Below are positions 21,643-59,014 of a stretch of DNA of 64,000 nt, piece after piece. The first letter of the stretch is position 1, and the number at the start of each line of letters is the position of its first letter. The position numbers and the translations under genes were made by a program. This DNA is from a virus: IMG/VR virus record IMGVR_UViG_3300042562_001046, positions 2,776 through 66,775 of that record; one strand, 5' to 3'. The notes under the pieces were generated by a model. That model saw only the letters and a list, made by a program, of their open reading frames with translations, searched no databases and was not told the origin of the DNA.

Positions 21643-22013
21643 GCGCCGGCTTTGGCCAGAGTGAACTTGGCCCAGGCGGCGTCGCGCTCTTTACCGCTCA
21701 GACCGGACCAGCCGAGTTCCTTCGTCAGCACCGCGCTGTGGGGGACGCCGACGGCGGTGAACTCCTCGCGCCGTCCGCGCAGCGAGATCTTCTCGAAGGC
21801 AGCAAACAGGGCGGCCTCGCGCTCAGCTGGGATGGTGGGCTCGACCGGGCCGTCGACGACGACTTCGGGAATATCTTCGGCCGGCACGATGCCGACGGCG
21901 ATCAGCTCGGCGTGCATCTGGGGCGGGGCGTAGGTGGGCTTGCCCTTCTCAAACTCGACCGAGCGGCCAGAGACGGAGGCCACGGTCATCTTGCGGGGTG
22001 CGATGTATTCCAT
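21639..22013 (-). CDS. Hypothetical virion-associated protein
   Basis: Start moved to MEYIAPRK; overlaps the next gene by ATGA. Confidence 0.6.
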   Translation of the reverse strand: MEYIAPRKMTVASVSGRSVEFEKGKPTYAPPQMHAELIAVGIVPAEDIPEVVVDGPVEPTIPAEREAALFAAFEKISLRGRREEFTAVGVPHSAVLTKELGWSGLSGKERDAAWAKFTLAKAGA

Positions 22014-22087
22014 GATGGTGCGTTTGGGTTGTGGGTTGAAAGGGATGGGGGCGAGGCCTTGTGAGCCCCGCCCTCCGTGATCCACAG

Positions 22088-22591
22088 TTACGTGATCACG
22101 ACTTCACTGGTGCGGCCATCCAGCGTGTACTCGACCCGCACACGGACCTTGCCGGCGGTGGCGTTGGCCACCGTGTAAGCGAGGGTCATGCGCAGGTTCT
22201 GGCCGGCGTTGCACAGCAACGGGGCGGTCAGCGCCAGAGCGGCACGGGTGCCGGCCGTGGCCATCACGCTGGTCGTGGCGATCAGCGCAGTGGTTGAGCC
22301 AGAGATGCCCACCGACAGCGTCGCAGCCGTGGGGCCGGCAAACGCTGTCTCGGTAATCACCTCACCGCCGATGATCACGGCGCCCTGGGGCATCGGGATG
22401 CAGTCGAACACCAGGCCGGTGTTAGCCACTGGGCCGGTCAGGCCGGACTCCAGCGGGTCAGTCGAGTTCGCCAAGGTCGACCCGAGGGTCTTCTTGGAGC
22501 CGTCGACCGCGTCGATCACCCACTCGTTGTGGGAGAAGACGAACTCAGCGTACAGGGGGTACTGGACAGTACGGGTTGCGAGCTTTTTCAT
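22088..22591 (-). CDS. Capsid decoration/minor capsid protein
   Basis: Directly downstream of the MCP; contains P.GAVIIGG.V....AF...ATAGKVRVRVEY. Confidence 0.65.
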   Translation of the reverse strand: MKKLATRTVQYPLYAEFVFSHNEWVIDAVDGSKKTLGSTLANSTDPLESGLTGPVANTGLVFDCIPMPQGAVIIGGEVITETAFAGPTAATLSVGISGSTTALIATTSVMATAGTRAALALTAPLLCNAGQNLRMTLAYTVANATAGKVRVRVEYTLDGRTSEVVIT

Positions 22592-22603
22592 GCTGGTTCC
22601 TCC

Positions 22604-23725
22604 TTATTGGGCGACGTAGCACGAGATCACACCGAAGTCTTCGACTGCGTTGCTCTCGTAGATGTTGCCGAATTTCGGTTTCAGGAAGCCCAGGATCTTG
22701 CCGATGGCAATCGCCTGCGAATTCTTGAAGTCGAAGTCTTCCTCGTTCCATTCCGGGGCGCCGAGGTCGGCCATACCGAGGGCTTGCGCACCGCAGAACA
22801 GGACCTGGCAGCCGTCGACCGTGCCACCCGAGCCGTACTTGCCGCTGGCCAGGCCAGAGGTGTTGGGCACGTGACGGAACTCGTGCAGGTAGATGCCGTC
22901 GATCTTGACGGTGTCGCCTGAGAAGAGCTTGTCGTTGACGCCGGAGTTCTGGCTGTAGCGCAGATTGGCGTTGTAGTCAGGGTCTTGCTTCAGCTTGGCC
23001 ATCGCCTGGGGCGTCAGAAACGCGTGGAACGTCTCCTGGCCGCCGTCGCCGCCGGTGCCGCGGATGTAGCGGTCTTTGGCGTAGGCTTTGAGCTGCACAA
23101 ACATCTTCCAGCCTGGGAAGTCAGCTGCGGTTACGGCAGCGGAAGTGTTCGAACCGGTCAGGCTCGACTTCAGCACGCCGGAGGTGGCGTCCCAGCGGGT
23201 TGTCCGACGGGTCGAAGGCGCGGTCACGTCAGCAGCGAACTCCAGGTACTGGAGGTCAGAGCCGACACGGGTGGCGCCGTTGGGCTTGTACTGGTAGCCG
23301 ATGCCAGCCAGCGTCTGAAACGCCATCTGGTCAATACGGTCAGCCAGCCAGTAGCTCAGCACGTTCTTGGAGTTGTCACGGAACCCGACGATCGACTTCT
23401 GGTCGGCCATCTTGCCCTCGTGGCGGTTGGCGTGGCGCAGCTGGTCGATGCGGATGACCTGCTCAAAGGTCTGCATGCCCTCTTCGTTGCCCACCAGTGT
23501 GCGGTCACCCGCCACACCGTCGCCCTGCAGGTCGGCCAGCAGGGTAATCACCGCACGGGCGCCCTTTTCAGACGACTTGAGATCGGTGATGTGCTGGATC
23601 ATCGAGCTGGTGCCCGAACCCAGAAACTTGTTGATGAAAGACTGATTGCGGGCGTTTTTCCACAAGTCCATAGACCAGACGGTCTTCTGCTCGTTAGTCA
23701 ACAGCCCAAAGTTGGTTAATGCCAT
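22604..23725 (-). CDS. Major capsid protein (N4-gp56/DUF4043 type)
   Basis: 373 aa with DLQGDGVAGDRTLVGNEE, IRIDQLRHA and LFCGAQALGMAD motifs; AAGGAG RBS. Confidence 0.9.
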   Translation of the reverse strand: MALTNFGLLTNEQKTVWSMDLWKNARNQSFINKFLGSGTSSMIQHITDLKSSEKGARAVITLLADLQGDGVAGDRTLVGNEEGMQTFEQVIRIDQLRHANRHEGKMADQKSIVGFRDNSKNVLSYWLADRIDQMAFQTLAGIGYQYKPNGATRVGSDLQYLEFAADVTAPSTRRTTRWDATSGVLKSSLTGSNTSAAVTAADFPGWKMFVQLKAYAKDRYIRGTGGDGGQETFHAFLTPQAMAKLKQDPDYNANLRYSQNSGVNDKLFSGDTVKIDGIYLHEFRHVPNTSGLASGKYGSGGTVDGCQVLFCGAQALGMADLGAPEWNEEDFDFKNSQAIAIGKILGFLKPKFGNIYESNAVEDFGVISCYVAQ

Positions 23726-23735
23726 GAGGCACTCC

Positions 23736-23755
23736 TTCTAAGTTCGATAAAAGAT
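23736..23755 (-). promoter_or_regulatory. 20-bp dispersed motif copy at the MCP RBS (ATCTTTTATCGAACTTAGAA)
   Basis: Its 3' end runs directly into the AAGGAG Shine-Dalgarno sequence. Confidence 0.6.
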
Positions 23756-23846
23756 TTAGACCTTTTGCCGAATGTCGCTTCGCGCCAGCGTTGACTGGAG
23801 GTGCTTTCGTGACCTACCTTGAACCGATGTGCGGAATATACCGCAT

Positions 23847-23866
23847 TTCTAACTTAGATGTTAGAT
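23847..23866 (-). promoter_or_regulatory. 20-bp dispersed motif copy (ATCTAACATCTAAGTTAGAA)
   Basis: Perfect consensus match. Overlaps the endolysin stop and is followed by a TATATT -10-like hexamer. Confidence 0.8.
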
Positions 23867-24307
23867 AAGAGCCGCCTCAGCTTCACGCCGAATCGTCAGG
23901 CCGCGCAGGACGCGACCGCCGGCTCTGTTCCACTTGCGCAGCTCACCCGGGACGGAACCCCAGTCACCGGCGTTCACGCGCTTGCGCAGCGTGCTGCCCT
24001 TGAGGGCGGAGCCGCCCAAGTTGTACGCAAAGTCGATCAGCGCAGCCAGCCGGTCGGGGTGGTCCAGCCCGGGGCACAGCCGCAGCACCTGGGGCAGGTA
24101 GACCCGTTTGACCATGTAGAGCAGCAAGGCTTCAGCCCTCTCGCGACTGATCTGAGCGTCAAGCAGGGTCACCAGAGTGCCGTCTTCGTAGTAGGTGCTG
24201 CCGAACCCAATGGTCGGTACCCCAGCCGGGCACAAGTAGGGCTTAGGAAAAAAGCCCTCGAACCGGCGCATCAGCGCCAGTGCCACGCGCAGGGCCAGCT
24301 CGATCAC
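23861..24307 (-). CDS. Endolysin, GH24 (T4-lysozyme-like) muramidase
   Basis: FEG...YLCPAGVPTIGFG gives the E-X8-C-X5-T triad; also FAYNLG, W...GG.VLRGL..RR..E. Confidence 0.92.
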   Translation of the reverse strand: MIELALRVALALMRRFEGFFPKPYLCPAGVPTIGFGSTYYEDGTLVTLLDAQISRERAEALLLYMVKRVYLPQVLRLCPGLDHPDRLAALIDFAYNLGGSALKGSTLRKRVNAGDWGSVPGELRKWNRAGGRVLRGLTIRREAEAALI

Positions 24308-24768
24308 TTGCCGCGCTTCGAGAGGTTACGGTCGGCCAAGTAGATGCCCAGCGCCGCGCTTGCAACTGCGGCAGCGAACTCGGACAAGACGATGAACCTG
24401 AACTCCGACAGGCTGATCATGACGAGCGCCCATGTCGCCACACCCGGACGGATGGTGGCGTTCCAAGCATCGACCCAGGCGATGCCGATGGCCTTGGTGG
24501 TGCCTTTCACGGCCTCAACCCAGCCCTGCGCCTCAAGCTCGCTGATCGCCGCTTCGGCCTGCACCTGTATCGTTTTGACACCCAGCTCGGCCTGCACGCG
24601 GATTGACTCCATGTTGCGCTCGTGCTGGCCCCGGTCCAGCTCGGCCTGAAGGTGCATGCGGTCCAGCTCGTGTTTGTGGTCCTGCTGTTTGGTGAGCCAA
24701 GCAGACAACTCACCCCACAGCATCCGAAAAACAGAGCCCCCAAAGAAGGAGATGAGTGCGGTGATCAT
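24304..24768 (-). CDS. Holin-like membrane protein
   Basis: N-terminal hydrophobic segment, coiled coil, IRP motif, two C-terminal TM helices and a basic tail; next to the endolysin. Confidence 0.65.
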   Translation of the reverse strand: MITALISFFGGSVFRMLWGELSAWLTKQQDHKHELDRMHLQAELDRGQHERNMESIRVQAELGVKTIQVQAEAAISELEAQGWVEAVKGTTKAIGIAWVDAWNATIRPGVATWALVMISLSEFRFIVLSEFAAAVASAALGIYLADRNLSKRGK

Positions 24769-25019
24769 TTTTTGATGTACTGAACGAGTGAAAACAAGAT
24801 CGCTGCAGCCGCCCACACCCCGATCCCCCGATTGACCCACTGGTCCACCTTGCGGTCGACCCGGAGCAGCGTCACCTCATACGCGGCAGCCTTCATCTCC
24901 ACGGCGCCGATCCTCTCGCCCTGAGTGGCCTGCCGCTCCTCGAAGAGGATCAGCTTGCCCACGGCGTCGGTTAGTTTGTCGACCTTAGTCTCGAGGCGTT
25001 TGAAATCGTCGTCAGTCAT
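24765..25019 (-). CDS. Coiled-coil plus TM lysis-associated protein (holin/antiholin-like)
   Basis: RLETKVDKL coiled coil and a C-terminal TM helix followed by KK. Confidence 0.55.
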   Translation of the reverse strand: MTDDDFKRLETKVDKLTDAVGKLILFEERQATQGERIGAVEMKAAAYEVTLLRVDRKVDQWVNRGIGVWAAAAILFSLVQYIKK

Positions 25020-25064
25020 GGTCGTTCTCGGCGGGTGGTTTGGGGGTTTAGGGTGGTTTTGTGG

Positions 25065-26039
25065 CTACAGCTCGTCGCCGCGCATCTTTGCCAGCTGGCT
25101 GTCACTCAACTGGGCAAATTCTTTCTGGCTCATGCGCATCACAGCAGCCGCGCTTTCTGCGCCGCCGCCTAGCTTGTCGCTGTCCAGGCCGACGCGGGAG
25201 AGCGACGGAGGGGTACTGCCTACGGCCTTGACGACCTTACCGACCGCGTCCTTCTTGCGCTCAGCAGCCACCTCTTTGTCACTGACGCGAGGCGCAGCGT
25301 TGGTGGCCATCTCCTGGCGCGTGGTGCGGGGCTCGACGATCAGCTTGACCGCCTTCTGCAGCGCAGCGGTCGGTGTCAGGCCCTTCATCTCGTAGGCAGA
25401 CTTCAGATCAGCCACTTCCGCCATGGCCTCCTCGTCGTAATCGTCGTGGTCTGGGTTCAGCGTCGGAAACGCCGTCTCGACCCGCTCCAGGGCCGTGTTG
25501 TACCGAGCCCGCTCTGTGGCCCGGATCTCAGCGGCGTGGATCTTCATGTCGCTCTTCGACTCAGCCATGTCCCGCTCAGCTTTGCGGATCTTGGCCATCG
25601 TGGCGGTGGCTTTGTCGATCTCGCCGTCGCTCAGCTGGGTGGCGTAGTCTTTCTCCAAGGCCATCACGCTGTTCTCCAGCGCGGTGATCTCCTCGTTCAC
25701 GTTGGCGATCTGGTTGCCCTGCTGGTACTGGGCCAGCTGGCGCTCCAGAGAGGCCCGCTGCTCGCGCTCCTTCTCCAGGATCTCCTTGTGCCGAGCCAAC
25801 GGGATGCGGGAGTCCTTCTGCTTGGGGTTGTCCGTCTTGTCGGCCTTGGCGTCCAGCTCAGCGTCCAGCTCCTGGACCTTCGGGTCCTTGGCAACTTCCT
25901 CTGCGACCTTGGCGTCAGGCTGGTCCGGGTCGAGGTCCTGGTCATCGGGCAGCAGGTCGCCGCGATCGGCAGCGGATGGGCCAGAGCCGGACTCACCGGG
26001 CTCTGGGTCGTACAGGCGGAAGAATTTCTGGATCAACAT
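25065..26039 (-). CDS. Capsid scaffolding protein
   Basis: Acidic N-terminus, IPLARH, helical body, C-terminal MSQKEF.QL...AKMRGD; lies between portal and MCP. Confidence 0.8.
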   Translation of the reverse strand: MLIQKFFRLYDPEPGESGSGPSAADRGDLLPDDQDLDPDQPDAKVAEEVAKDPKVQELDAELDAKADKTDNPKQKDSRIPLARHKEILEKEREQRASLERQLAQYQQGNQIANVNEEITALENSVMALEKDYATQLSDGEIDKATATMAKIRKAERDMAESKSDMKIHAAEIRATERARYNTALERVETAFPTLNPDHDDYDEEAMAEVADLKSAYEMKGLTPTAALQKAVKLIVEPRTTRQEMATNAAPRVSDKEVAAERKKDAVGKVVKAVGSTPPSLSRVGLDSDKLGGGAESAAAVMRMSQKEFAQLSDSQLAKMRGDEL

Positions 26040-26063
26040 AGTGCGGGCTTTCGGGTGGGTGGG

Positions 26064-26417
26064 TTAGAGGTAGCGCAGCGCGTGGACCACGCCGCGGAAG
26101 ATGTAGTCCTTGGCCTGCTGCTCGCGGGGCAAGTCGGCGAAGGGCACCAGGCAGGGGTGTTCTTTCGCTACGGGGTCCTTCACCGGGCCGTAGTACCAGC
26201 CCTCATCCAGCTTCTGCTGCATCCAGGCGGTGTGGCTGGCCTCGGGACCGAAGTCGCCCGAGATGTGCAGGTACACGCCCGAGCGGGCCGACGAGCGCTG
26301 CCACTCCGGGGCGTCCGCCCAGGCCGGCTGGGAGGTGTCGCCCAGGGCTTCACAGTAAGCCCGGTTCACCTCGTGGCAGATGCGGGCGACTTCGTCAAGC
26401 GGGTGGGGGGCGCTCAT
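26064..26417 (-). CDS. RyR-domain protein
   Basis: ARICHEVNRAYC...SHTAW...K..EGW.YGPVKD...KEHPCLVPF..LP..QQAKD. Confidence 0.85.
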   Translation of the reverse strand: MSAPHPLDEVARICHEVNRAYCEALGDTSQPAWADAPEWQRSSARSGVYLHISGDFGPEASHTAWMQQKLDEGWYYGPVKDPVAKEHPCLVPFADLPREQQAKDYIFRGVVHALRYL

Positions 26418-26833
26418 GCGGCCACCTCGGCCAGCTCGGCCAACCGGCTGCGCAGCTCGTAGCCCATCAGCGGCCAGATCTTCTGCACGGCGTTGGCGCG
26501 GGCGATGCTGCGGCCAATATCGGCGTCGAAGTTCTCGGGGCTGGCGCAGGCTGATTCACCTGTGACGGTGAAGCCGTTTTTCAAGACCAGCACGCAGAAG
26601 GTCAGCAGGCACAGAGGCAGCGGGACTTCGATGCCGTAAGCGCCGCGTAGGTCTGCCCCGTTTTCAGTCAGCATGGCCGAGCCACGCGCCCCGTTCTCAG
26701 CCGTGAAATAGTGCTCGCTGGCAATGTTGCCGTCGATGTCCGCCGGCGTGATGCGCGGGGCGGTCAGGCCCTTGGCCTGGATCTGCTGCTCGATGCCGGG
26801 GTCGTCAGTGCGTGGGGAGGGGATGTTGTGCAT
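26414..26833 (-). CDS. N4 Gp49/Sf6 gp66 family protein
   Basis: APRITP...LTFCVLVLKNGFTVTGESACASPENFDADIGRSIA...KIWPLMGY. Confidence 0.88.
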   Translation of the reverse strand: MHNIPSPRTDDPGIEQQIQAKGLTAPRITPADIDGNIASEHYFTAENGARGSAMLTENGADLRGAYGIEVPLPLCLLTFCVLVLKNGFTVTGESACASPENFDADIGRSIARANAVQKIWPLMGYELRSRLAELAEVAA

Positions 26834-26839
26834 GGTGGG

Positions 26840-29062
26840 TTAGGCTTTTGAGGTTGGGAGACGGGATCTGTTGGCGGTGCGCCGGGTGGTGGGCGGCTTG
26901 GCAGCGGCTGTGGCAGCGTCCTGCACGGCCTTGACGCGGGCGTCCATGCGCTTCTGGGCCATGTCCTGCTCCTTGAGCTGCAGCTCAGCGCCCATCTGCT
27001 CGCGCTTGAGCTGGTGCTCGCGCTCGGCCAGGCTCATCTTCTGCTGGGCCGTGCGCTCGTCCAGGCCGGCCTTCTGATCGGCGGCCTGGGCCTTGACCTG
27101 GACCTCTGCCATCTTGGCCTGGGCCGAGCCGTCGTCGGGCTCGCCCTGCTGCATGACCTGGGTCTTGGCGACGGTCTCCTGCGTCTTGGCTCCCTTGAGC
27201 TGGGCGTCTGCGCCCTTCTGCTGGGCTTCTGCCTCTGACTTGGCAACCTCGGCGTTCTGGGCCCGCTGCTGCAGCTCCTTGGCAGCCACCGCCTCCGGGC
27301 TGGTCTGGTCGCCGGCCATCTGTTTGATGATGTCCTTCTTGTTCGTCAGGCGGCTGGCGTCGATGATCACGCTGTCGGGCAGCATGATGCCGGCCTCGCG
27401 CATCGCCATGACCTGCTCGAACTGGCTGTCTTCGAGCGTCTCGCGGCGCGGCACCGAGCTGACGACGACGTCGTACTCGCCCAGCGTCAGGTCGTTCAGG
27501 ATCTCCTGGTACGGGCTCTCCGGCGGCTCTTCGCCGGTCTCGGCCTCGGGGTTCATCTGGTTGATACCGAACGTCTCCGTCTCACCGGTGGCCTGATCGT
27601 GGGTGATCGTCATCAGGCGCTCTTCGGTGTAGAACTCCTGCACCAGGTCAAGAATGTTCCGTGCCAGGATGAAGTCTGTGCGGGTCAGGTTGTCCAGCGG
27701 CTTGACCAGATTCGTGCTGCCGGCCTTCTGCTTGGCCTGAATCGCCTTGGCGGCGACGTCGGCCCGGTCCATGCCCTGCATGCTGTCGCTGATGCCCGAA
27801 ATTGTCTTGATCGACTCCTCAGCCTTGTAGCTGATGCGGTCCAGGCCCTGGGGGACCTGGTTCGGGGCAATCTTCTGGATGTCTTTGTCGGGGTCACCGT
27901 TGACCTCGATCACGAGGCCGGTCTGGGCGCCCTTCGCCTCCAGCTCGGCGACGGTCATGTTCGCCAGCGCCCCGGCTTTGACCTTGTAGCCCGAATTCGC
28001 CGTGGTGTTCACCACGTGCAGCTCCTGGCTGGTGACTTTGTTCAGCAGCTCCTGCGGGCCGAGCAAGTTCTCAACCAGGCCCAGCGTATGGCCGTAGCGG
28101 AAGTGTGGGAAGTACGGCACGATCGTGAAGTGCTTGTACGGGCTCCACTTGTCGTGCAGGATGACGTTGTCGGCCAGGGCGACCCAGCGGATGCGCCGCA
28201 CCAGCTTGGGCACGATCTGAAAACCGTACTTCTCGACGAAGAACGCAATCCGGTTGCGGTCAAAGTCCTGCGGAACCTCGCGCATGTCGCCCGTGGCCGG
28301 GCTGAGGAAGAACTTCTGCCGGTCCAGCTCGCGGAACTGGCGCTCAATGACGCGGATGTTGCGCAGGACGTTCGAGTTGTCGGCGCCATTGTTGTAGGTG
28401 GCGGTACGGGCGTCACCGAACCGGTCCCGGTTCATCTGGATGCTGTCGTAGCCGTAGGGGAAGCTGGCGTTGTCCCGGTTGCGCAGCAGCTCGGCGTCTT
28501 CGGGGGTGTACAGCACCGCGAGGTCGTCGGCGGTGACCCACTTCGTGGTGAACACCTCGCCCCACTTGTCTGGATCGTACTCGTCAGCGTCGGAGTCGAT
28601 CAGGACGTTCTTGCGGTTCATGTTCTCAATGGACACCTCGCCCTGCGCGGAGTCGTTCATGCTCAGGCGCACGTCCAAGAACCCACGCGAGCTGATGATG
28701 CCATCGGCGAACATGTCCGAGCGCTTCCAGTCCAGCTGGTTGTTGTCGCTGATCTGCTTGAACACCTTCGTCAGGATCTCGGCGTTCTCGGCCGGTGCGC
28801 CGCTGCGCGGGCGGAAGCTGATCTCCGAGCGGTTGTTGATCTGCTCACCCAGCACGTTGCTGACGGTGGCCAGGATCTTGTTGATCGTCAGCACCGGGCG
28901 GCGGTTCTTCTCCAGCGCGGCGCGGTCATTGGCGGCCCACTGGTCGCCGGCGAAGAAGCGCTCGCACTTGTCGGCCTTCTCCACGTACTTCGTGTGCCCG
29001 TTGTCCCTCACCCAGGCGTAGCGTTGCCACTGTTTGTAAGCGAGTTCAGAGTTGACGGGCAT
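26840..29062 (-). CDS. Portal protein (P22-like)
   Basis: FFAGDQW...RPVLTINKI and PQELLNK motifs, long C-terminal coiled-coil barrel, downstream of TerL. Confidence 0.9.
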   Translation of the reverse strand: MPVNSELAYKQWQRYAWVRDNGHTKYVEKADKCERFFAGDQWAANDRAALEKNRRPVLTINKILATVSNVLGEQINNRSEISFRPRSGAPAENAEILTKVFKQISDNNQLDWKRSDMFADGIISSRGFLDVRLSMNDSAQGEVSIENMNRKNVLIDSDADEYDPDKWGEVFTTKWVTADDLAVLYTPEDAELLRNRDNASFPYGYDSIQMNRDRFGDARTATYNNGADNSNVLRNIRVIERQFRELDRQKFFLSPATGDMREVPQDFDRNRIAFFVEKYGFQIVPKLVRRIRWVALADNVILHDKWSPYKHFTIVPYFPHFRYGHTLGLVENLLGPQELLNKVTSQELHVVNTTANSGYKVKAGALANMTVAELEAKGAQTGLVIEVNGDPDKDIQKIAPNQVPQGLDRISYKAEESIKTISGISDSMQGMDRADVAAKAIQAKQKAGSTNLVKPLDNLTRTDFILARNILDLVQEFYTEERLMTITHDQATGETETFGINQMNPEAETGEEPPESPYQEILNDLTLGEYDVVVSSVPRRETLEDSQFEQVMAMREAGIMLPDSVIIDASRLTNKKDIIKQMAGDQTSPEAVAAKELQQRAQNAEVAKSEAEAQQKGADAQLKGAKTQETVAKTQVMQQGEPDDGSAQAKMAEVQVKAQAADQKAGLDERTAQQKMSLAEREHQLKREQMGAELQLKEQDMAQKRMDARVKAVQDAATAAAKPPTTRRTANRSRLPTSKA

Positions 29063-29069
29063 GGCGACC

Positions 29070-29423
29070 TTATTTGTAGAAGCGGAGCCGGGTCAGGGAC
29101 TGCGCTGTCAGCTCCTCCAGCTCAGCCAGAATGTTCAGCAGCGCCTGGCTCTCGTGGTCTTCCTCCAGCTCAGCGGCGATGCTGGCCAGGTAGTCCTCCA
29201 GCAGCGGAATCGGGGTCATTCGGGGCGGCGCGACCGAGGGGAAAGTCTTGATCTGCTCGTACAGCCCCATGTAGACCTCGGCGTACTTGTCGACCAGGTC
29301 AATCAGCCCCTCGTAGAACGTCTGGAGGGCGACGTGCTGGGCGTAGGTGCTGGCGCTGAAGTGCAGGAGGTGCGCGGCGGTGCGCACGGCGAAGGACTGG
29401 GCGATGAATTCAGGGCAGCTCAT
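29070..29423 (-). CDS. Ferritin/Dps-like four-helix protein (DUF5856-like)
   Basis: Start at MSCPEF; AHLLHF...TYAQHVAL..FYE.L..LVD..AE.YMG pattern. Confidence 0.7.
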   Translation of the reverse strand: MSCPEFIAQSFAVRTAAHLLHFSASTYAQHVALQTFYEGLIDLVDKYAEVYMGLYEQIKTFPSVAPPRMTPIPLLEDYLASIAAELEEDHESQALLNILAELEELTAQSLTRLRFYK

Positions 29424-29436
29424 GGGGTGGAGAGCG

Positions 29437-30987
29437 TCACGCGCCCATAAACGAGCTGGAGCCCGAAGATGCGAGCCGACTGCGCCATGATTCAGGCTCC
29501 TTGAACACGATTTTTCGGGGCGGCTCGCTGCCGATCGCCATCTGCGTGGCCCAAGCCAGGGAGTCGACACAGTCGTCGTGTACACCAGCGGGGAACCTCA
29601 ACATCTCGAGCCGACAGGCGTCGTACCACTCCGCTTCAGCAGCAAAGCTCACCCTCCCCTGCTGCAGCCGGCCCTGGAGTGGGCGGGCTCGCGCCAGCTT
29701 GTCCGTGATCGGCTTCAGCACCTGGATGGATGGGTATTCGCGTCGTTCTCTCATTCTCTTCTTTAATAGAGATTCGATTGCACGGTAAATCTGCCCGTCT
29801 TCAAACCCGAGCTGCTGGCCGGAAGTGTACCATCTCTTACTTAGATTTAAGATTGCCTCAACGATGTACAGGGCGTCGCCAGACTTGAAGCGGACCTGCT
29901 CGGCCACGTGCAGCGTGTCGTTCTCGTCCTGCAGCAGCACCGTGCCGACCGTGTAGTCGTTCTGTTTCTTCTCGCTGATGGCGAAATCCCACGCGATAAA
30001 CACGTTCACCCGCGACAGGTGCGGCAGCGCAGCCCGGCGGAAGTGCTCCTTGAGGAAGTAGGCCCCGTCATCGGGCACCGGGTTCTGCTGGAACAGGGCC
30101 GACCAGAACCTGGGGCTGATGGTGCGCTTGATCCGGTTGAGCTTCTGCAGGTCGTAGCGCTCCGGGTGCAGCGCCTCGCCCTTGCCGCGCAGCTTGTGGC
30201 CGTTTTCCGGGGGCTCGTACACGATTAGATCCGTGTCGTAGTCCAGATACTCGTCGCTTTCGGCGATCGCGGGGTACTTCACCACCACAAACTGGTCCGC
30301 CTCGGGGTCGGCCATGGCGTTCTGCAGCCGCCCGGCCAGATCATCGTCGTGCCACCAAGTCTGCGTCAAAAGTACGCCGCCACCAGGCGCCAGGCGGGTA
30401 TAGGCGGTCGAACCGTACCAATCCCACAGTTTCTCCCGTATATCCCCCGAATCCGCCTCCTCGGCGTTCTTAATAGGGTCGTCGATGCTCAGAATGTGGG
30501 CGCCCTTGCCCGTAATCCCGCCACCGACCCCTGCGGCCACGTAGCCGCCCCGAGAGCCCTGCAGGCCCCACTCCTCAGCGGCCTGGAAATTCGGGTTCAG
30601 ACGGGTCTCGTACACGCTGTGGTAGGCCGGATCCTCCAGCACCTCCTTCACTTTCCGGCTGAAAGTCATCGCCAGGCCCACGTTGTACGAGCAATTGATG
30701 ATCTCGTGGTCCGGGTGCCGGCCCAAGTGCCAGGGCGGGAACATCCGGGAGCTGAGCTCTGATTTCCCGGCCCGTGGCGGCATCAGCAGCATCAGCCGGG
30801 GGCTCAGGCCCTTGGCCACGTCGTCGCTGAACTTCTCCAGCCGCCGGCAGATGTCCTGGTGGACCCAGCCCGCGCTGTAGCGGGGGTTGATCCGCTGCAC
30901 AAACGGCAGCAGCCGTCGCCGTGACAGCAGCCGAGAGGCCATCTCGATCTCGATGGCCGTGGGAGCCTTGGGGGCCTTGGTCTTCAT
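29437..30987 (-). CDS. terL: Terminase large subunit
   Basis: Walker A MPPRAGKS, Walker B IDDPIK, TWWH.DDL.G coupling motif, and RNase H nuclease DFAIS...HDD.VD. Confidence 0.95.
   Translation of the reverse strand: MKTKAPKAPTAIEIEMASRLLSRRRLLPFVQRINPRYSAGWVHQDICRRLEKFSDDVAKGLSPRLMLLMPPRAGKSELSSRMFPPWHLGRHPDHEIINCSYNVGLAMTFSRKVKEVLEDPAYHSVYETRLNPNFQAAEEWGLQGSRGGYVAAGVGGGITGKGAHILSIDDPIKNAEEADSGDIREKLWDWYGSTAYTRLAPGGGVLLTQTWWHDDDLAGRLQNAMADPEADQFVVVKYPAIAESDEYLDYDTDLIVYEPPENGHKLRGKGEALHPERYDLQKLNRIKRTISPRFWSALFQQNPVPDDGAYFLKEHFRRAALPHLSRVNVFIAWDFAISEKKQNDYTVGTVLLQDENDTLHVAEQVRFKSGDALYIVEAILNLSKRWYTSGQQLGFEDGQIYRAIESLLKKRMRERREYPSIQVLKPITDKLARARPLQGRLQQGRVSFAAEAEWYDACRLEMLRFPAGVHDDCVDSLAWATQMAIGSEPPRKIVFKEPESWRSRLASSGSSSFMGA
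29834..29853 (-). promoter_or_regulatory. 20-bp dispersed motif copy inside terL (ATCTTAAATCTAAGTAAGAG)
   Basis: AT-rich island inside terL using codons atypical for this genome (TTA AAT CTA AGT AAG AGA). Confidence 0.6.
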
Positions 30988-31259
30988 TCCATGGGGCGCA
31001 TGTCAATGAACACCGGCGTGCCCTCCCCCATGTAGGCGGGCAGGATGTTGAACTCAAACCACTCCTCGGCTTCTTCCCGGGGCATGTCGCGGGCCAGCAC
31101 GTCGATCACCATGGTGCGGTCGTAGGCAGCCACCCGCATTCCGCCCGCCCGCTCACAGACGCCGATCACGGCTGCGTCGAACGCCACCGGATCCAGCAGA
31201 TGGGCCGGGGCTTCGTCATCGCCGAGGAGTTCGTGCAGGCGGTCGCGGGTGTAGGTCAT
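30984..31259 (-). CDS. Conserved phage hypothetical protein
   Basis: FDAAVIG...AYD...EEA.EWFEFNI..AYMGEGTPVF; ATGA overlaps on both sides. Confidence 0.75.
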   Translation of the reverse strand: MTYTRDRLHELLGDDEAPAHLLDPVAFDAAVIGVCERAGGMRVAAYDRTMVIDVLARDMPREEAEEWFEFNILPAYMGEGTPVFIDMRPME

Positions 31260-42292: not shown

Positions 42293-42492
42293 TGATCAGT
42301 CTGACCTGGGATGAAAGATCGGGAGACGGCGAAGGAAAAGTCCGCATACAGAAAAACTTCCTCAAGGAGCACCGCATAACCCAACTAGACGGCTTGAAGG
42401 ACTGGATTGGCGAGCTGACCAATATCTACGAAGACATGCTTACTAACGAGACCCTTTTCTCACCCCTAAACCACAAAAACCCAACACCATGA
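42286..42492 (+). CDS. Hypothetical protein
   Basis: LD.LKDWI..L...Y motif; AAGGAG RBS. Confidence 0.55.
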   Translation: MLMISLTWDERSGDGEGKVRIQKNFLKEHRITQLDGLKDWIGELTNIYEDMLTNETLFSPLNHKNPTP

Positions 42493-43475
42493 AACCATCC
42501 AGCATCCGCACAGTCATACCCAAACTCATCGCCAAGCAGCGCCCTGTCTTCATCTGGGGCCCACCCGGCGTCGGCAAGTCTGACGGCGTGGCCCAGATTG
42601 CCAAGGACATGAAGCTCGAGCTGCGCGACGTTCGCCTGTCCCTGCTCGACCCGATCGACCTGAAGGGCTTTCCCGTTGTCGACGCCGTCAAGAAACAGAT
42701 GAAGTGGCTTCCTGCCGACTTCCTACCCACCAAGGGCAAGGGCCTGCTGTTCCTGGACGAGATGAACAGCGCCCCGATGGCGGTCCAGGGCGCAGCCTAC
42801 CAGCTGGTGCTCAACCGCAAGATTGGTGACTACAAGCTGCCCGACGGCTGGGCTGTGCTGGCTGCAGGCAACCGCTCCGGCGACCGTGCCATCGTTCATG
42901 CCATGCCGTCCGCGCTGGCCAACCGCTTCGTTCACCTGGACTACGACGTCAACGTAGACGACTGGAACATGTGGGCAATGGAGAACGGCATACACGACCA
43001 CATCCGTGGCTTCATCCAGTTCCGCCCGGCGCTGCTGCACAGTTTCGACCCCGCCACCAACCCACGTGCCTTCCCAACAGGGCGCAGCTGGATGTTTGCC
43101 AACGACATCTACCAAGACGAACACCCCGCAGCCGAGGAGTTCGAACTACTCAAGGGCACCGTCGGCGAAGGCGCTGCAGCTGAGTTCAGCGGCTACGTCA
43201 AGCAGCTGCGCGATCTGCCCAGCGTCCCTCAGGTGCTGATGGACCCAGACGGCACCAAGCTGCCCTCATCCCCCGCTGCCAAAGCCGCCATGGCTGCAGC
43301 CCTGGACCCAGCCACCACGGTCGGCAACATCGCCCGCGTCATGAAGTACATCGAGCGCATGCCGGTCGAGTTCGGTGCTGTGTTCATCCGCTCCATCATC
43401 CGGCGTGACAGCAAGCTGACCAGCACCAAGTCCTACATGGACTGGACCATCAAGAACCAGGCCGTGTTGACCTAA
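42489..43475 (+). CDS. MoxR-type AAA+ ATPase
   Basis: WGPPGVGKS, LFLDEMN, AAGNR and ALANRF. Confidence 0.9.
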   Translation: MKPSSIRTVIPKLIAKQRPVFIWGPPGVGKSDGVAQIAKDMKLELRDVRLSLLDPIDLKGFPVVDAVKKQMKWLPADFLPTKGKGLLFLDEMNSAPMAVQGAAYQLVLNRKIGDYKLPDGWAVLAAGNRSGDRAIVHAMPSALANRFVHLDYDVNVDDWNMWAMENGIHDHIRGFIQFRPALLHSFDPATNPRAFPTGRSWMFANDIYQDEHPAAEEFELLKGTVGEGAAAEFSGYVKQLRDLPSVPQVLMDPDGTKLPSSPAAKAAMAAALDPATTVGNIARVMKYIERMPVEFGAVFIRSIIRRDSKLTSTKSYMDWTIKNQAVLT

Positions 43476-44552: not shown

Positions 44553-45249
44553 CATGGTCTGCATCAGCTCGTACGAGCAGGCGCTGGCGCACTGGAAGAA
44601 GACCAAGTCGTGGGCCAACAACGACCGCCCGTTGTCCGGCCGGCGTGAAAAAAATAAAGCGCTGCGCAAACTAACCGACGGCAGCTTCGAGTGCCGCTTG
44701 TACGAAACGCCACTGGTGACCTATCACCCGGCGGGCCAGGTCACTCTTCTCACCGACGACAGACTTTCTAGTCGGATGTTCATGGAACGTGTTGCGCCGC
44801 TCCACTGCTCCCCTGTGTCTGCTCAAGGAAGGACGTTCTGGGAGATCAGGACTCGTGACGGCGCGCAGTTTCGCCTAAACCGAACTGAAATAATACCCAA
44901 CGACGACAAGACCTGGCGGGTCCTGTACAGCACGGGCCAAGCCACAGAACAGTTCAGAGACAAGTCGCTGTGCGCCAAGATCCGGCGCAACCTAAAGATG
45001 TACGCCAACTGGTACGGCGTGACCAGCCGCCTGATGAACTTGCCCGGTGGAGGCCACGTTGCACACCTGTCCAATACACGTCTGACACAGCTTACTGAGC
45101 GCCCGCTCGAACCTGAATCCTTCATGGAATTTGCCGGCGAAGCGGGAGACCCCTGCCGCTACTCGTTCTACGACCACATCTTTCGGGCCACCGGCGCCCT
45201 TCGAACTATCCCCGTCCCTTTTGACCGCCTACCCAGGAACGCCCCATGA
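44527..45249 (+). CDS. Hypothetical protein
   Basis: 240 aa; RLYETPLVTYHPxG motif. Confidence 0.65.
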   Translation: MTWSISTRSMVCISSYEQALAHWKKTKSWANNDRPLSGRREKNKALRKLTDGSFECRLYETPLVTYHPAGQVTLLTDDRLSSRMFMERVAPLHCSPVSAQGRTFWEIRTRDGAQFRLNRTEIIPNDDKTWRVLYSTGQATEQFRDKSLCAKIRRNLKMYANWYGVTSRLMNLPGGGHVAHLSNTRLTQLTERPLEPESFMEFAGEAGDPCRYSFYDHIFRATGALRTIPVPFDRLPRNAP

Positions 45250-46328
45250 ACAAAGAAATTGCTGACAAAATCACTCACGCCCGCACCTCGCTGATCATCG
45301 ACCAGCCGTTCCTCGGCATGCTCGCCTTGCGTCTCACGATGGTGGAGGACACCGGCATCAAAACCCTGGCGGTCGACGGCAAGCACATCTACTACAACCC
45401 CACATTCGTCGGCACGCTGTCCCTGGAGCTGCTGATCTCAGCCCTGGCCCACGAGGTGTTCCACTGCGTGTACGACCACATCGGACGCCGGGGCGGCCGT
45501 AACCCACGCAAGTACAACCAGGCGGGCGACTATGTCATCAACGCCACCCTCAAAGACGCCGGCATGCCCATCAGCCCAAACTGGCTCTTTAACGCCGGGT
45601 ATGCCGGTATGTCGAGTGACGAGATCTACAACCTGCTGCCCGACGATGACGGCCACGGCAACGACCCCCTGGATGAAGTCCGGGACGGTGACCCGAACGA
45701 CACGGAGGAAATGGCCGTCGACTGGAAGATCGCCACGATCGAGGCAGCCAACGCAGCTGAGAAGTTCGGCAAGCTGCCCGCCAGCATGAAGCGCTTTGTC
45801 GAGCAGCTGACCAGAGCCAAAGTCGACTGGCGTGACGTCCTGCGCCGGTTCATCACCCAGCGCTCGGCAGATGACTACACCTGGCTGCGCCCAAACCGGC
45901 GCTTCATCCAGCAGGGCCTGTTCCTGCCCACGCTCTACTCAGAGTCCATGGGCGAGGTGATCGTCTGCATCGACACCTCAGGCTCCATCGACCAGGCCAC
46001 GCTCGACGCGTTCGGGTCTGAGATCAAAGCCGTGGTGCAGTCGACCCGCCCTACTCTCACCCACGTCATCTACTGTGACGCTGCTGTCAACCACGTCGAT
46101 GCGTTCGGGCCCAACGACGACCTGAACTTCGCCATGCACGGCGGCGGCGGCACTGACTTCCGCCCACCCTTCGAGTACGCAGCCCAAGAACAGATCCAGG
46201 CCAGCTGCCTGATCTACCTGACCGACGGCTACGGCCCGTTCCCCCAGACAGCTGACTTCCCCGTCCTGTGGGTCATGACCACAGACGTCGTCGCCCCGTT
46301 TGGCGACACCATCCAGATCGAGATCTAA
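45246..46328 (+). CDS. DUF2201 metallopeptidase-vWA protein
   Basis: AHEVFH (HExxH), MIDAS DTSGS, GGGTDF and LTDGYG. Confidence 0.9.
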   Translation: MNKEIADKITHARTSLIIDQPFLGMLALRLTMVEDTGIKTLAVDGKHIYYNPTFVGTLSLELLISALAHEVFHCVYDHIGRRGGRNPRKYNQAGDYVINATLKDAGMPISPNWLFNAGYAGMSSDEIYNLLPDDDGHGNDPLDEVRDGDPNDTEEMAVDWKIATIEAANAAEKFGKLPASMKRFVEQLTRAKVDWRDVLRRFITQRSADDYTWLRPNRRFIQQGLFLPTLYSESMGEVIVCIDTSGSIDQATLDAFGSEIKAVVQSTRPTLTHVIYCDAAVNHVDAFGPNDDLNFAMHGGGGTDFRPPFEYAAQEQIQASCLIYLTDGYGPFPQTADFPVLWVMTTDVVAPFGDTIQIEI

Positions 46329-57819: not shown

Positions 57820-58151
57820 CCACTGAGCCGCTGCGCATCCTGAACCTGCAGGAGGCAGCGGCGTTGCTGCGCGTGCACAAATCCACCTTGTCCGGCCAGG
57901 CAGCAGCGGGGCTGGTCCCCGCTGGCAAGATTGGTCGAGCCTGGACGTTCATCGAGTCTGACCTCGTCGCACACCTACGAAACCAATACCTATGTCCCTC
58001 TACAAACAGCCCAGCAGTGAAATCTGGTGGGCCTACCTCACGCACCAGGGGGAGCGGCACCGCTTCTCGACTGGAGAAACTGATCGCGCTGCGGCGAAAC
58101 GAGTTCACGACGAGCGCAAAGCCGCGCTCTGGAAAGAAACCCCTGCCCTAA
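57816..58151 (+). CDS. xis: Excisionase-like HTH_17 protein
   Basis: L.L.EAA.LL.VH..T....A..G.VPA.KIGR.W.F; directly upstream of and overlapping int. Confidence 0.8.
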   Translation: MTTEPLRILNLQEAAALLRVHKSTLSGQAAAGLVPAGKIGRAWTFIESDLVAHLRNQYLCPSTNSPAVKSGGPTSRTRGSGTASRLEKLIALRRNEFTTSAKPRSGKKPLP

Positions 58152-59014
58152 AAGGCAAGACCTGGAACAACGCCATCGAGAAATGGCTGGACGCTGCCCC
58201 GCGCTCATATTCCGAGCTGCTGGGCATCAAGAAGTTCAACCTGTACTTTCCCGACCGGCGGCTCAACAGCATCACGCCAGAGCTGGTTAACGAGGCCCTG
58301 TCGAAGTATTGCAAGACCGGGGCCACCTACACGCGGCATCGGGCGCGTGTCGCTGGGATCCTGAACATGAACGGGGTGATCCTCAAACTCGACACCCGCA
58401 AGGTCAAGAAGAAGGCCCGTACCTGGCTGACCCACGAGCAGTGGGCGGCTCTGTACGCAGAACTACCGCCGCACATGCAGCCAATGGCAGAGTTTGCGGT
58501 GGAGACCGGTCTGCGCCAGTCCAACGTGCTGAAGCTGGCATGGGACCGCGTTGACGTCAAACGCCGCCTGGTATGGATCGAAGCTGAGGACATGAAGGGC
58601 GGCACCGCCATCGGGATCCCCCTATCAACTGGAGCACTGCGTGTCCTACAAGCCCAAACCGGGAAGCACCCTGAGTTCGTCTTTACGTACCAGAAGCGCC
58701 CCATCAAAGAAATCAAGACCGCCTTCATCGCCGCCTGTGTCCGAGCAGGAGTTGGTCGCATGGTGGACGGAGCGTATCGTGGGTTCACCTGGCACGGCTT
58801 TCGCCACACCTGGGCCACCTGGCACGTCCAGAACGGCACCCCACTCGACGTCCTTCAGAAGCTAGGCGCCTGGAAAGACCACCGGATGGTGCTGAATTAC
58901 GCCCACCACTCGCCTGGGCACTTGGCGAGTTTTGCTGACAACGCGAAGGAAAAATCATGCCTGACGCCGACGACTACTTCTGCATCGGTACCGACGGACG
59001 CCTCTGGATCCTAG
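57992..59014 (+). CDS. int: Tyrosine integrase
   Basis: TGLR, K(GG), HGFRHT, LGAW and NYAH catalytic residues; N-terminal arm-binding domain. Confidence 0.95.
   Translation: MSLYKQPSSEIWWAYLTHQGERHRFSTGETDRAAAKRVHDERKAALWKETPALKGKTWNNAIEKWLDAAPRSYSELLGIKKFNLYFPDRRLNSITPELVNEALSKYCKTGATYTRHRARVAGILNMNGVILKLDTRKVKKKARTWLTHEQWAALYAELPPHMQPMAEFAVETGLRQSNVLKLAWDRVDVKRRLVWIEAEDMKGGTAIGIPLSTGALRVLQAQTGKHPEFVFTYQKRPIKEIKTAFIAACVRAGVGRMVDGAYRGFTWHGFRHTWATWHVQNGTPLDVLQKLGAWKDHRMVLNYAHHSPGHLASFADNAKEKSCLTPTTTSASVPTDASGS

Follow-up and report, generated by a model that had tools for sequence, protein, structure and literature searches.

A coupled Gp49/Acb4-family and RyR-domain gene pair in the head operon of a temperate phage is a probable double counter-defence module

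What do two small genes, one of the Gp49/Acb4 family and one with an RyR domain, do between the portal and scaffold genes of a phage? We examined this question in a window of 64,000 nucleotides, the whole stretch of DNA analysed here (positions 2,776 to 66,775 of IMG/VR record IMGVR_UViG_3300042562_001046). A first-pass annotation had proposed that the pair neutralises two immune signals, and our analysis leads to a reading that we consider probable: the cassette is a double counter-defence module encoded in the late head operon, with the Gp49 protein serving as a sponge for CBASS dinucleotides and the RyR protein as a sponge for Thoeris signals. This reading is based on family membership, the folds of the two proteins, the conservation of the RyR pocket, a predicted tetramer, and the recurrent linkage or fusion of the two domains. 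For the cassette itself, we infer ligand binding, sponge rather than enzyme activity, late timing, and any effect on a defence system.

The window covers nearly all of a 66,775-bp record that has direct terminal repeats and is rated 100% complete. Structural genes occupy the minus strand from about position 1 to 32,000, while the replication genes and the integrase gene lie on the plus strand, and because of this integrase gene (57992-59014, +) we take the phage to be temperate. Both of the small minus-strand genes that the first-pass annotation had described as coupled by ATGA are present. The Gp49/Acb4-family gene (26414..26833, −; 139 aa; PF13876 Phage_gp49_66) and the RyR (Repeat12)-domain gene (26064..26417, −; 117 aa; PF02026) share an ATGA stop/start overlap at 26414..26417 (−), read as tcat on the plus strand, and a Shine-Dalgarno-like GAGG (26425..26428, −) stands 7 nt 5' of the RyR ATG, within the end of the Gp49 coding region. 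The gap from the stop of the P22-type portal gene (26840..29062, −; PF16510 P22_portal, 328 bits; phrog_156) to the Gp49 start is 6 nt, and that from the RyR stop to the start of a putative scaffold gene (25065..26039, −) is 24 nt. The latter encodes an acidic protein of 324 aa for which NCBIfam, Pfam, and PHROGs gave no family match, and its label derives from its place between the portal and the capsid genes and from the homologs that relatives have at that same place. A consensus scan of 24500-29500 revealed neither a sigma-70-like promoter nor a minus-strand terminator-like site within the cassette, and the pair thus appears to be part of the late head operon; together with the tiny intergenic gaps, this suggests that the two genes may be co-expressed with the capsid genes.

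Upon searching for relatives of the phage by megablast of 22000-31000 against phage records, we obtained a single match of 130 bp, and therefore the phage has no close cultured relative. A scan of genome contigs with the portal reached only three short MAG fragments, the best of them in an Ideonella MAG at 65%, and Gp49 homologs at 70-71% identity occur in Bordetella and Achromobacter; a Burkholderiales-like host is our guess. Two other regions of the genome deserve mention. Between the large terminase and the portal, a small gene at 29070-29585 (−) encodes a protein that matches DUF5856 (57 bits) and phrog_858 ('starvation-inducible transcriptional regulator'); it is likely another moron in the late operon, and as the ORF as listed overlaps the end of the terminase gene, its true start probably lies later. 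On the plus strand, a DUF2201 metallopeptidase/VWA-like protein is encoded at 45246-46328, downstream of an AAA ATPase gene (42489-43475) and separated from it by two ORFs without family matches.

Both family signatures that had been recognised from the sequence were found in Pfam well above the cut-offs, with 110.4 bits for PF13876 in the Gp49 protein (cut-off 27, E 6e-32) and 42.3 bits for PF02026 in the RyR protein (cut-off 27.4, E 9e-11), and the PHROGs matches of both proteins, which are families of unknown function, are in line with this. The annotation had placed the sponge Acb4 in the Gp49 family, and the accessible text of Chang et al. (bioRxiv 10.1101/2024.12.30.630793) agrees: Acb4 of Bacillus phage SPO1, a 96-aa protein, founds PF13876 and forms a tetramer that holds four 3'3'-cGAMP molecules at its subunit interfaces. 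The same text reports that all 8 of 8 diverse homologs tested bind 3'3'-cGAMP and that 3'3'-cAA is bound in addition by those homologs that come from phages with Gram-negative hosts. When the window Gp49 protein was compared with the PDB as a single sequence (phmmer), Acb4 was the sole match (E 0.0067), while a profile of 83 Gp49 relatives matched Acb4 (9E4W) with an E of 2.3e-9 over chain residues 3-87, nearly the whole chain. The AF2 model of the protein (pLDDT 91.7; strands 37-44, 77-84, and 89-95; helix 104-138) shows the Acb4 core fold, in which helices flank three antiparallel strands and the C-terminal helix is long, and Foldseek with this model returned 9E4W at all of ranks 1-10 (probability 1.00; target-normalised TM up to 0.72). 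Hence, the comparison with Acb4 by HMM and by structure, which the first-pass annotation had suggested as a check, confirmed the relationship.

The predicted quaternary structure points in the same direction. A four-copy model of the Gp49 protein scored 0.88, compared to 0.00 for the best control, on a measure whose mark was reached by 20/30 proteins solved as pairs and by 1/23 solved as single chains, although this pass may reflect likeness alone, given that the Acb4 tetramer has already been solved. The four-copy runs had at least 74% of contacts in common, with a partner pLDDT of at least 83. The predicted interfaces, which involve the sheet at 77-97 and the long C-terminal helix (117-132) where it rests against 84-88 and 96-106, agree with the description of Acb4 in the accessible text of its paper. 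The window protein thus has in common with SPO1 Acb4 the Pfam family, the core fold, and the two interface types of the predicted tetramer, and it has also kept the ENF-x-x-x-IGR region and the adenine-pocket residues. It differs in its length of 139 aa compared to 96 aa, in an additional helical portion at the N-terminus and a variable insertion around residues 46-70, and in being encoded, unlike SPO1 Acb4, in the late head operon of a temperate phage. We regard the Acb4 family and architecture of the Gp49 protein as secure.

Its choice of ligand is a different matter. The first-pass annotation had held that an absence of binding-pocket residues would speak against a signal-neutralising role, and on the Gp49 side the outcome is mixed. 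Once the residue numbers of the SPO1 Acb4 paper had been shifted by one to fit the chain, 3/10 ligand contacts proved identical (F48, F62, and I66, corresponding to F88, F102, and I106) and the other 7/10 different. Of the guanine-edge readers, K36 has become L76 and E49 has become T89; at the phosphate contacts, A97, I110, and P121 stand in place of Y57, T70, and K81; V56 corresponds to C96, and N63, a backbone contact, to D103. The protein might accordingly be an Acb4-fold sponge for ligands other than those of SPO1 Acb4, for instance c-di-AMP-type or uridine-containing CBASS signals, that binds 3'3'-cGAMP weakly or not at all. This possibility, which we entertain as a tentative one, draws on the loss of the two guanine readers, on the retention of the adenine pocket as F102, I106, and D103, and on the binding of 3'3'-cAA by the homologs from phages of Gram-negative hosts, but it has to contend with the finding that every one of the diverse Acb4 homologs bound 3'3'-cGAMP despite their divergence. 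As judged from these residues, the ligand set of the window protein may lean to adenine-containing dinucleotides. Among cultured phages, the best Gp49 match, at 68% identity, is encoded by Pseudomonas phage vB_PaeS-D14C (L168:3495-3854), where it is annotated as 'Anti-CRISPR protein' (basis of the label not given); that gene lies among head-tail connector and tail genes and adjoins a glycosyltransferase and a methyltransferase gene.

For the second protein of the cassette, two characterised relatives provide the reference. RyDEP, which is gp78 of mycobacteriophage DyoEdafos (PF02026; PDB 35TM), is described in the accessible text of Lopez Rivera et al. (PMC13232231) as a cADPR glycosidase, and its gene is flanked by NARP1 NAD-synthesis genes; six of eight other PF02026 homologs in that text bind the signals, and none of the seven others tested for it cleaves them, which makes them sponges. 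RyR Tad, gp68 of Pectobacterium phage vB_PatP_CB1, is according to the accessible text of Fedorova et al. (bioRxiv 10.64898/2026.06.04.730250) a dimeric gcADPR sponge that takes up 3'cADPR with a K_D of 43 nM and needs H129, W132, K147, H154, K170, and D171. The homodimer typical of this group of viral PF02026 proteins is a back-to-back one, joined through helices 1 and 4. The window RyR protein matched 35TM with an E of 2.9e-11 (phmmer, against a fuller PDB copy). Its AF2 model (pLDDT 94.6; helices 8-24, 38-53, 58-71, and 98-114) shows a four-helix Repeat12-like fold, and Foldseek, using a library that ends in April 2026 and is without 35TM, placed RyR Repeat12 and Bacteroides RyR-like structures first. 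The profile and structure comparisons with RyR proteins that had been suggested thus gave the expected kinship on this side as well.

The ligand pocket of the RyR protein is complete. The six residues on which RyR Tad depends are all identical in the window protein (6/6; H62, W65, K80, H87, K103, and D104), and the four RyDEP residues H75, W78, H100, and D117 likewise have identical counterparts (4/4). The six were invariant in 90/90 aligned sequences, an alignment that joined the window protein to 80 close homologs from the database and 9 relatives from IMG/VR. Where a lack of pocket residues could have counted against the annotated role, all published ligand residues are therefore present on the RyR side.

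Does the RyR protein hold its signal or destroy it? The first-pass annotation had referred to phage RyR proteins reported to degrade ADPR-derived Thoeris signals. In print, such proteins either cleave or sequester 2'cADPR and 3'cADPR, so the link to Thoeris signals stood, and degradation appears to be the less likely mode here; as for the targets, the accessible texts of these papers show 2'cADPR, 3'cADPR, and cADPR, and action on His-ADPR, which the annotation had also listed, was not found in them. A RyDEP-type glycosidase would cut the ribose-ribose bond of 2'cADPR or 3'cADPR to yield ADPR. The PF02026 family does include one such enzyme in the text of Lopez Rivera et al. (PMC13232231), and its catalytic dyad H75 and D117 aligns with H62 and D104 of the window protein, with W78 and H100 kept too, but the dyad is no discriminator, because the sponge RyR Tad carries these same residues, and the other homologs in that text showed no cleavage. 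Identity separates the two better, as the window protein is 53% identical to RyR Tad (CB1 gp68; L166:12143-12694) compared to 39% to RyDEP (DyoEdafos gp78; L167:9664-10080), and for this reason a sponge is the likelier of the two. Moreover, Q54 of RyDEP, a position mutated by its authors, corresponds to V48 in the window protein and V115 in the sponge, with an indel nearby, and in a rapidly built tree of weak support, RyDEP is the sole occupant of a very long branch. The NARP1 genomic context of the founding glycosidase does not occur in this genome, where NAPRTase and PRPP-synthase-N gave no match, and the NAD-restoring partner pathway is thus absent. We consider an enzyme unlikely, and a sponge the probable function as far as these comparisons go.

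In its likeness to the two references, the window protein accordingly comes closer to RyR Tad, with which it shares 53% identity over the RyR domain, the six binding residues, and the all-helical Repeat12-like fold, than to RyDEP, with which it has PF02026 and the four conserved residues in common but not the glutamine at position 54 or the NARP1 context. It is nevertheless no copy of RyR Tad. The N-terminal domain of gp68, whose fold is unknown, has no counterpart in the window protein, and the gp68 gene lies in an N4-like early 'anti-signalling hotspot', in the wording of the accessible text, whereas the window gene lies in a head operon with a separate Acb4-family gene upstream. We considered whether the N-terminal domain of gp68 could be Acb4-like and rejected this, since Pfam shows only RyR in gp68. 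In another N4-like phage, Erwinia phage Fifi067, the gene of a 160-aa RyR-domain protein (L001:3839-4321) directly adjoins that of the virion RNA polymerase and comes after seven tRNA genes in a block.

Genes for the two proteins also meet elsewhere. For each protein, the best 80 IMG/VR loci were extracted together with 4 kb on either side, and both window proteins served as queries against them. A Gp49 match occurred near RyR in 28/80 best RyR loci, as a single ORF in 14, as adjacent genes in 8, and at a distance of 1.5-2.2 kb in 6; the single ORFs were fusions in the order Gp49-RyR in 13 cases and RyR-Gp49 in one (L086). Conversely, RyR was found near Gp49 in 7/80 best Gp49 loci, five of which share the 4-bp overlap, with either gene first. 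When sequences were clustered at 90% identity to remove redundancy, linkage was seen in 15/50 RyR clusters and 7/70 Gp49 clusters. Control loci around the phage's DNA ligase contained either gene in 0/9 cases, a sample too small for a rate, and as a background, Gp49 was matched in 644 and RyR in 296 of 50,697 phage records, anywhere in the record.

The fused forms themselves were first hinted at by phrog_4435, which matches both window proteins in different parts of its profile. When scanned with Pfam, 8/8 fusions carried both domains above threshold. Among the best 120 database RyR homologs, 12 are annotated with PF02026 plus PF13876 and 2 with PF02026 plus an Acb2/Tad1 hairpin, and the best 120 Gp49 homologs include two that have PF21825 (Sequestin) attached and two in which Gp49 occurs twice in tandem. 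The fusion also occurs in about 100 cultured phage genomes, and the two that we examined belong to the Ackermannviridae: AVO22940.1 of Erwinia phage Bue1 (L169:1982-2821; also L125), with 279 aa, and gp066 of Salmonella phage PM10 (L184:1492-2364), with 290 aa, are both annotated as 'hypothetical' and both carry PF13876 and PF02026. At least 80% of the Bue1 fusion protein was covered in 102 phage records. Individual relatives show such combinations. P0160 and P0181, which are RyR relatives with 76% identity to the window protein, have a C-terminal Acb2/Tad1 hairpin (PF24729) and thus represent another sponge-sponge fusion, and P0012, P0101, P0003, and P0004 are close Gp49 relatives with either a fusion to PF21825 or a double Gp49.

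A closer view of how the pair comes and goes was obtained from 12 loci with the window's own portal, scaffold, and capsid set, all of which were retrieved via Gp49 or RyR and hence give no measure of how often this lineage carries these genes. In 10 of these head-module loci, the portal is directly followed by the scaffold, in the order portal-scaffold-Gp49-capsid (6/12), portal-scaffold-Gp49-RyR-capsid (2/12; L041 and L075), or with a Gp49-RyR fusion between scaffold and capsid (2/12; L095 and L097). The other 2/12 (L013 and L030) have Gp49 between portal and scaffold, the same site as in the window, and are without RyR. The earlier observation that the portal-scaffold synteny is interrupted is thus borne out, with Gp49 standing between the two genes in the window, L013, and L030. 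In a DNA alignment, the window differs from L013 by an additional, cleanly delimited stretch of ~350 bp that makes up the RyR gene: TAACCCACC...ATG, the junction that comes after the Gp49 stop in L013, stands behind the RyR stop in the window. At the site between scaffold and major capsid genes, where relatives carry Gp49 with or without RyR, the window has a lysis-type cassette (23861-25019, −) that comprises a Phage_lysozyme gene (23861-24307) and, upstream of it, two small ORFs (178 and 84 aa).

These shifts in arrangement fit accessory morons, not structural parts, and they bear on the notion that both proteins serve in head assembly, belong to the virion, or influence nucleotide metabolism in the host, with no part in immune evasion. 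Such a role could explain why both genes sit inside a head-gene operon, and it would match some labels in the databases, where RyR homologs of Erythrobacter phage XM05 and Salmonella phage vB_CECAV_050 are called 'minor head protein' and a Gp49 homolog of Agrobacterium phage OLIVR1 is called 'putative structural protein' (in each case, the basis of the label is not given). An essential structural part is however a poor fit to genes that, within the same head module, occupy two different sites, with RyR present, absent, or fused. In addition, homologs in other phages, including those of the RyR gene, lie among early or DNA-metabolism genes, and both families contain, according to the accessible texts, experimentally shown sponge or enzyme members. 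We therefore consider a purely structural or metabolic role very improbable and retain the double counter-defence module as the preferred reading.

The published sponge fusions provide a precedent for such a module. The accessible text of the sponge-discovery paper (bioRxiv 10.1101/2025.07.12.664507) presents Acb4-Tad2 and Acb4-PF21825 as frequent fusion types, and Sequestin was discovered with the help of such fusions; gp59 of phage Ab09, an Acb4-Sequestin fusion, counteracts CBASS as well as type I Thoeris according to the accessible text of Fedorova et al. (bioRxiv 10.64898/2026.06.04.730250). Acb4-Sequestin proteins (Pseudomonas phages Ab09, gp59, and YH6) and Acb4-Tad2 proteins (Pasteurella phage Pm86) join Acb4 to a cADPR-binding sponge, as the window cassette would. 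A single unit thereby reaches CBASS and type I Thoeris alike and, in the accessible accounts, two systems are blocked at once. The cassette differs from these fusions in that the partner on the Thoeris side is an RyR domain, and in that the window genes are separate and translationally coupled. Tad2, Sequestin, and the Acb2/Tad1 hairpin gave no match in the genome, although for PF21825 and PF24729 these absences are weak, as the tool's own controls for both also matched nothing. In the full-text literature, we found no description of an Acb4-RyR pairing, while supplementary homolog tables may list such proteins. Fedorova et al. was the sole text to contain both terms, and its accessible passages handle Acb4-Sequestin and RyR Tad apart; 'Acb4' does not occur in the text of the RyDEP paper, nor 'RyR' in that of the Acb4 paper, and the sponge-discovery paper, which sought Pfam families fused to Acb4, is without 'RyR' or 'PF02026' in its text. 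Judged by sequence, both window genes are new members of known sponge families, and their pairing follows the published sponge-fusion rule.

Taken together, these data suggest the following course of events. The pair would be a moron that has its place within the late head-gene operon of a temperate phage of 66.8 kb. Of its two products, the Gp49 protein, most likely a tetramer, would trap CBASS cyclic dinucleotides at its subunit interfaces, while the RyR protein, most likely a dimer, would bind 3'cADPR and 2'cADPR in the pocket formed by H62, W65, K80, H87, K103, and D104 and hold them uncleaved. Through translational coupling, both proteins could be produced in co-ordination with the portal, scaffold, and capsid proteins. 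Such timing speaks against the module, since the position of the genes implies late expression whereas most anti-defence genes in print belong to the early or middle class. Capsids are cited in the introduction of Fedorova et al. (bioRxiv 10.64898/2026.06.04.730250; accessible text) as triggers of type I Thoeris. We hypothesize, more speculatively, that Acb4 and RyR are a recurrent evolutionary unit that exists as split coupled genes, as fusions in either order, or with one half lost, and that the split proteins of the window function jointly as a single composite sponge, directed at both CBASS and type I Thoeris, that is made just in time beside the triggering capsid proteins and not early.

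If this composite unit were real, the Acb4-RyR fusion of the Ackermannviridae would be a dual inhibitor too, and a second, RyR-based route by which an anti-CBASS sponge is joined to an anti-Thoeris sponge would be added to the known one. This would provide a ready prediction for the ~100 cultured phage genomes with the fused form. Within one head-gene lineage, Gp49 alone, the split pair, and the fusion constitute a natural series from which the value of fusion and of late timing might be learned. For annotation, both genes can now be given names in place of the label hypothetical.
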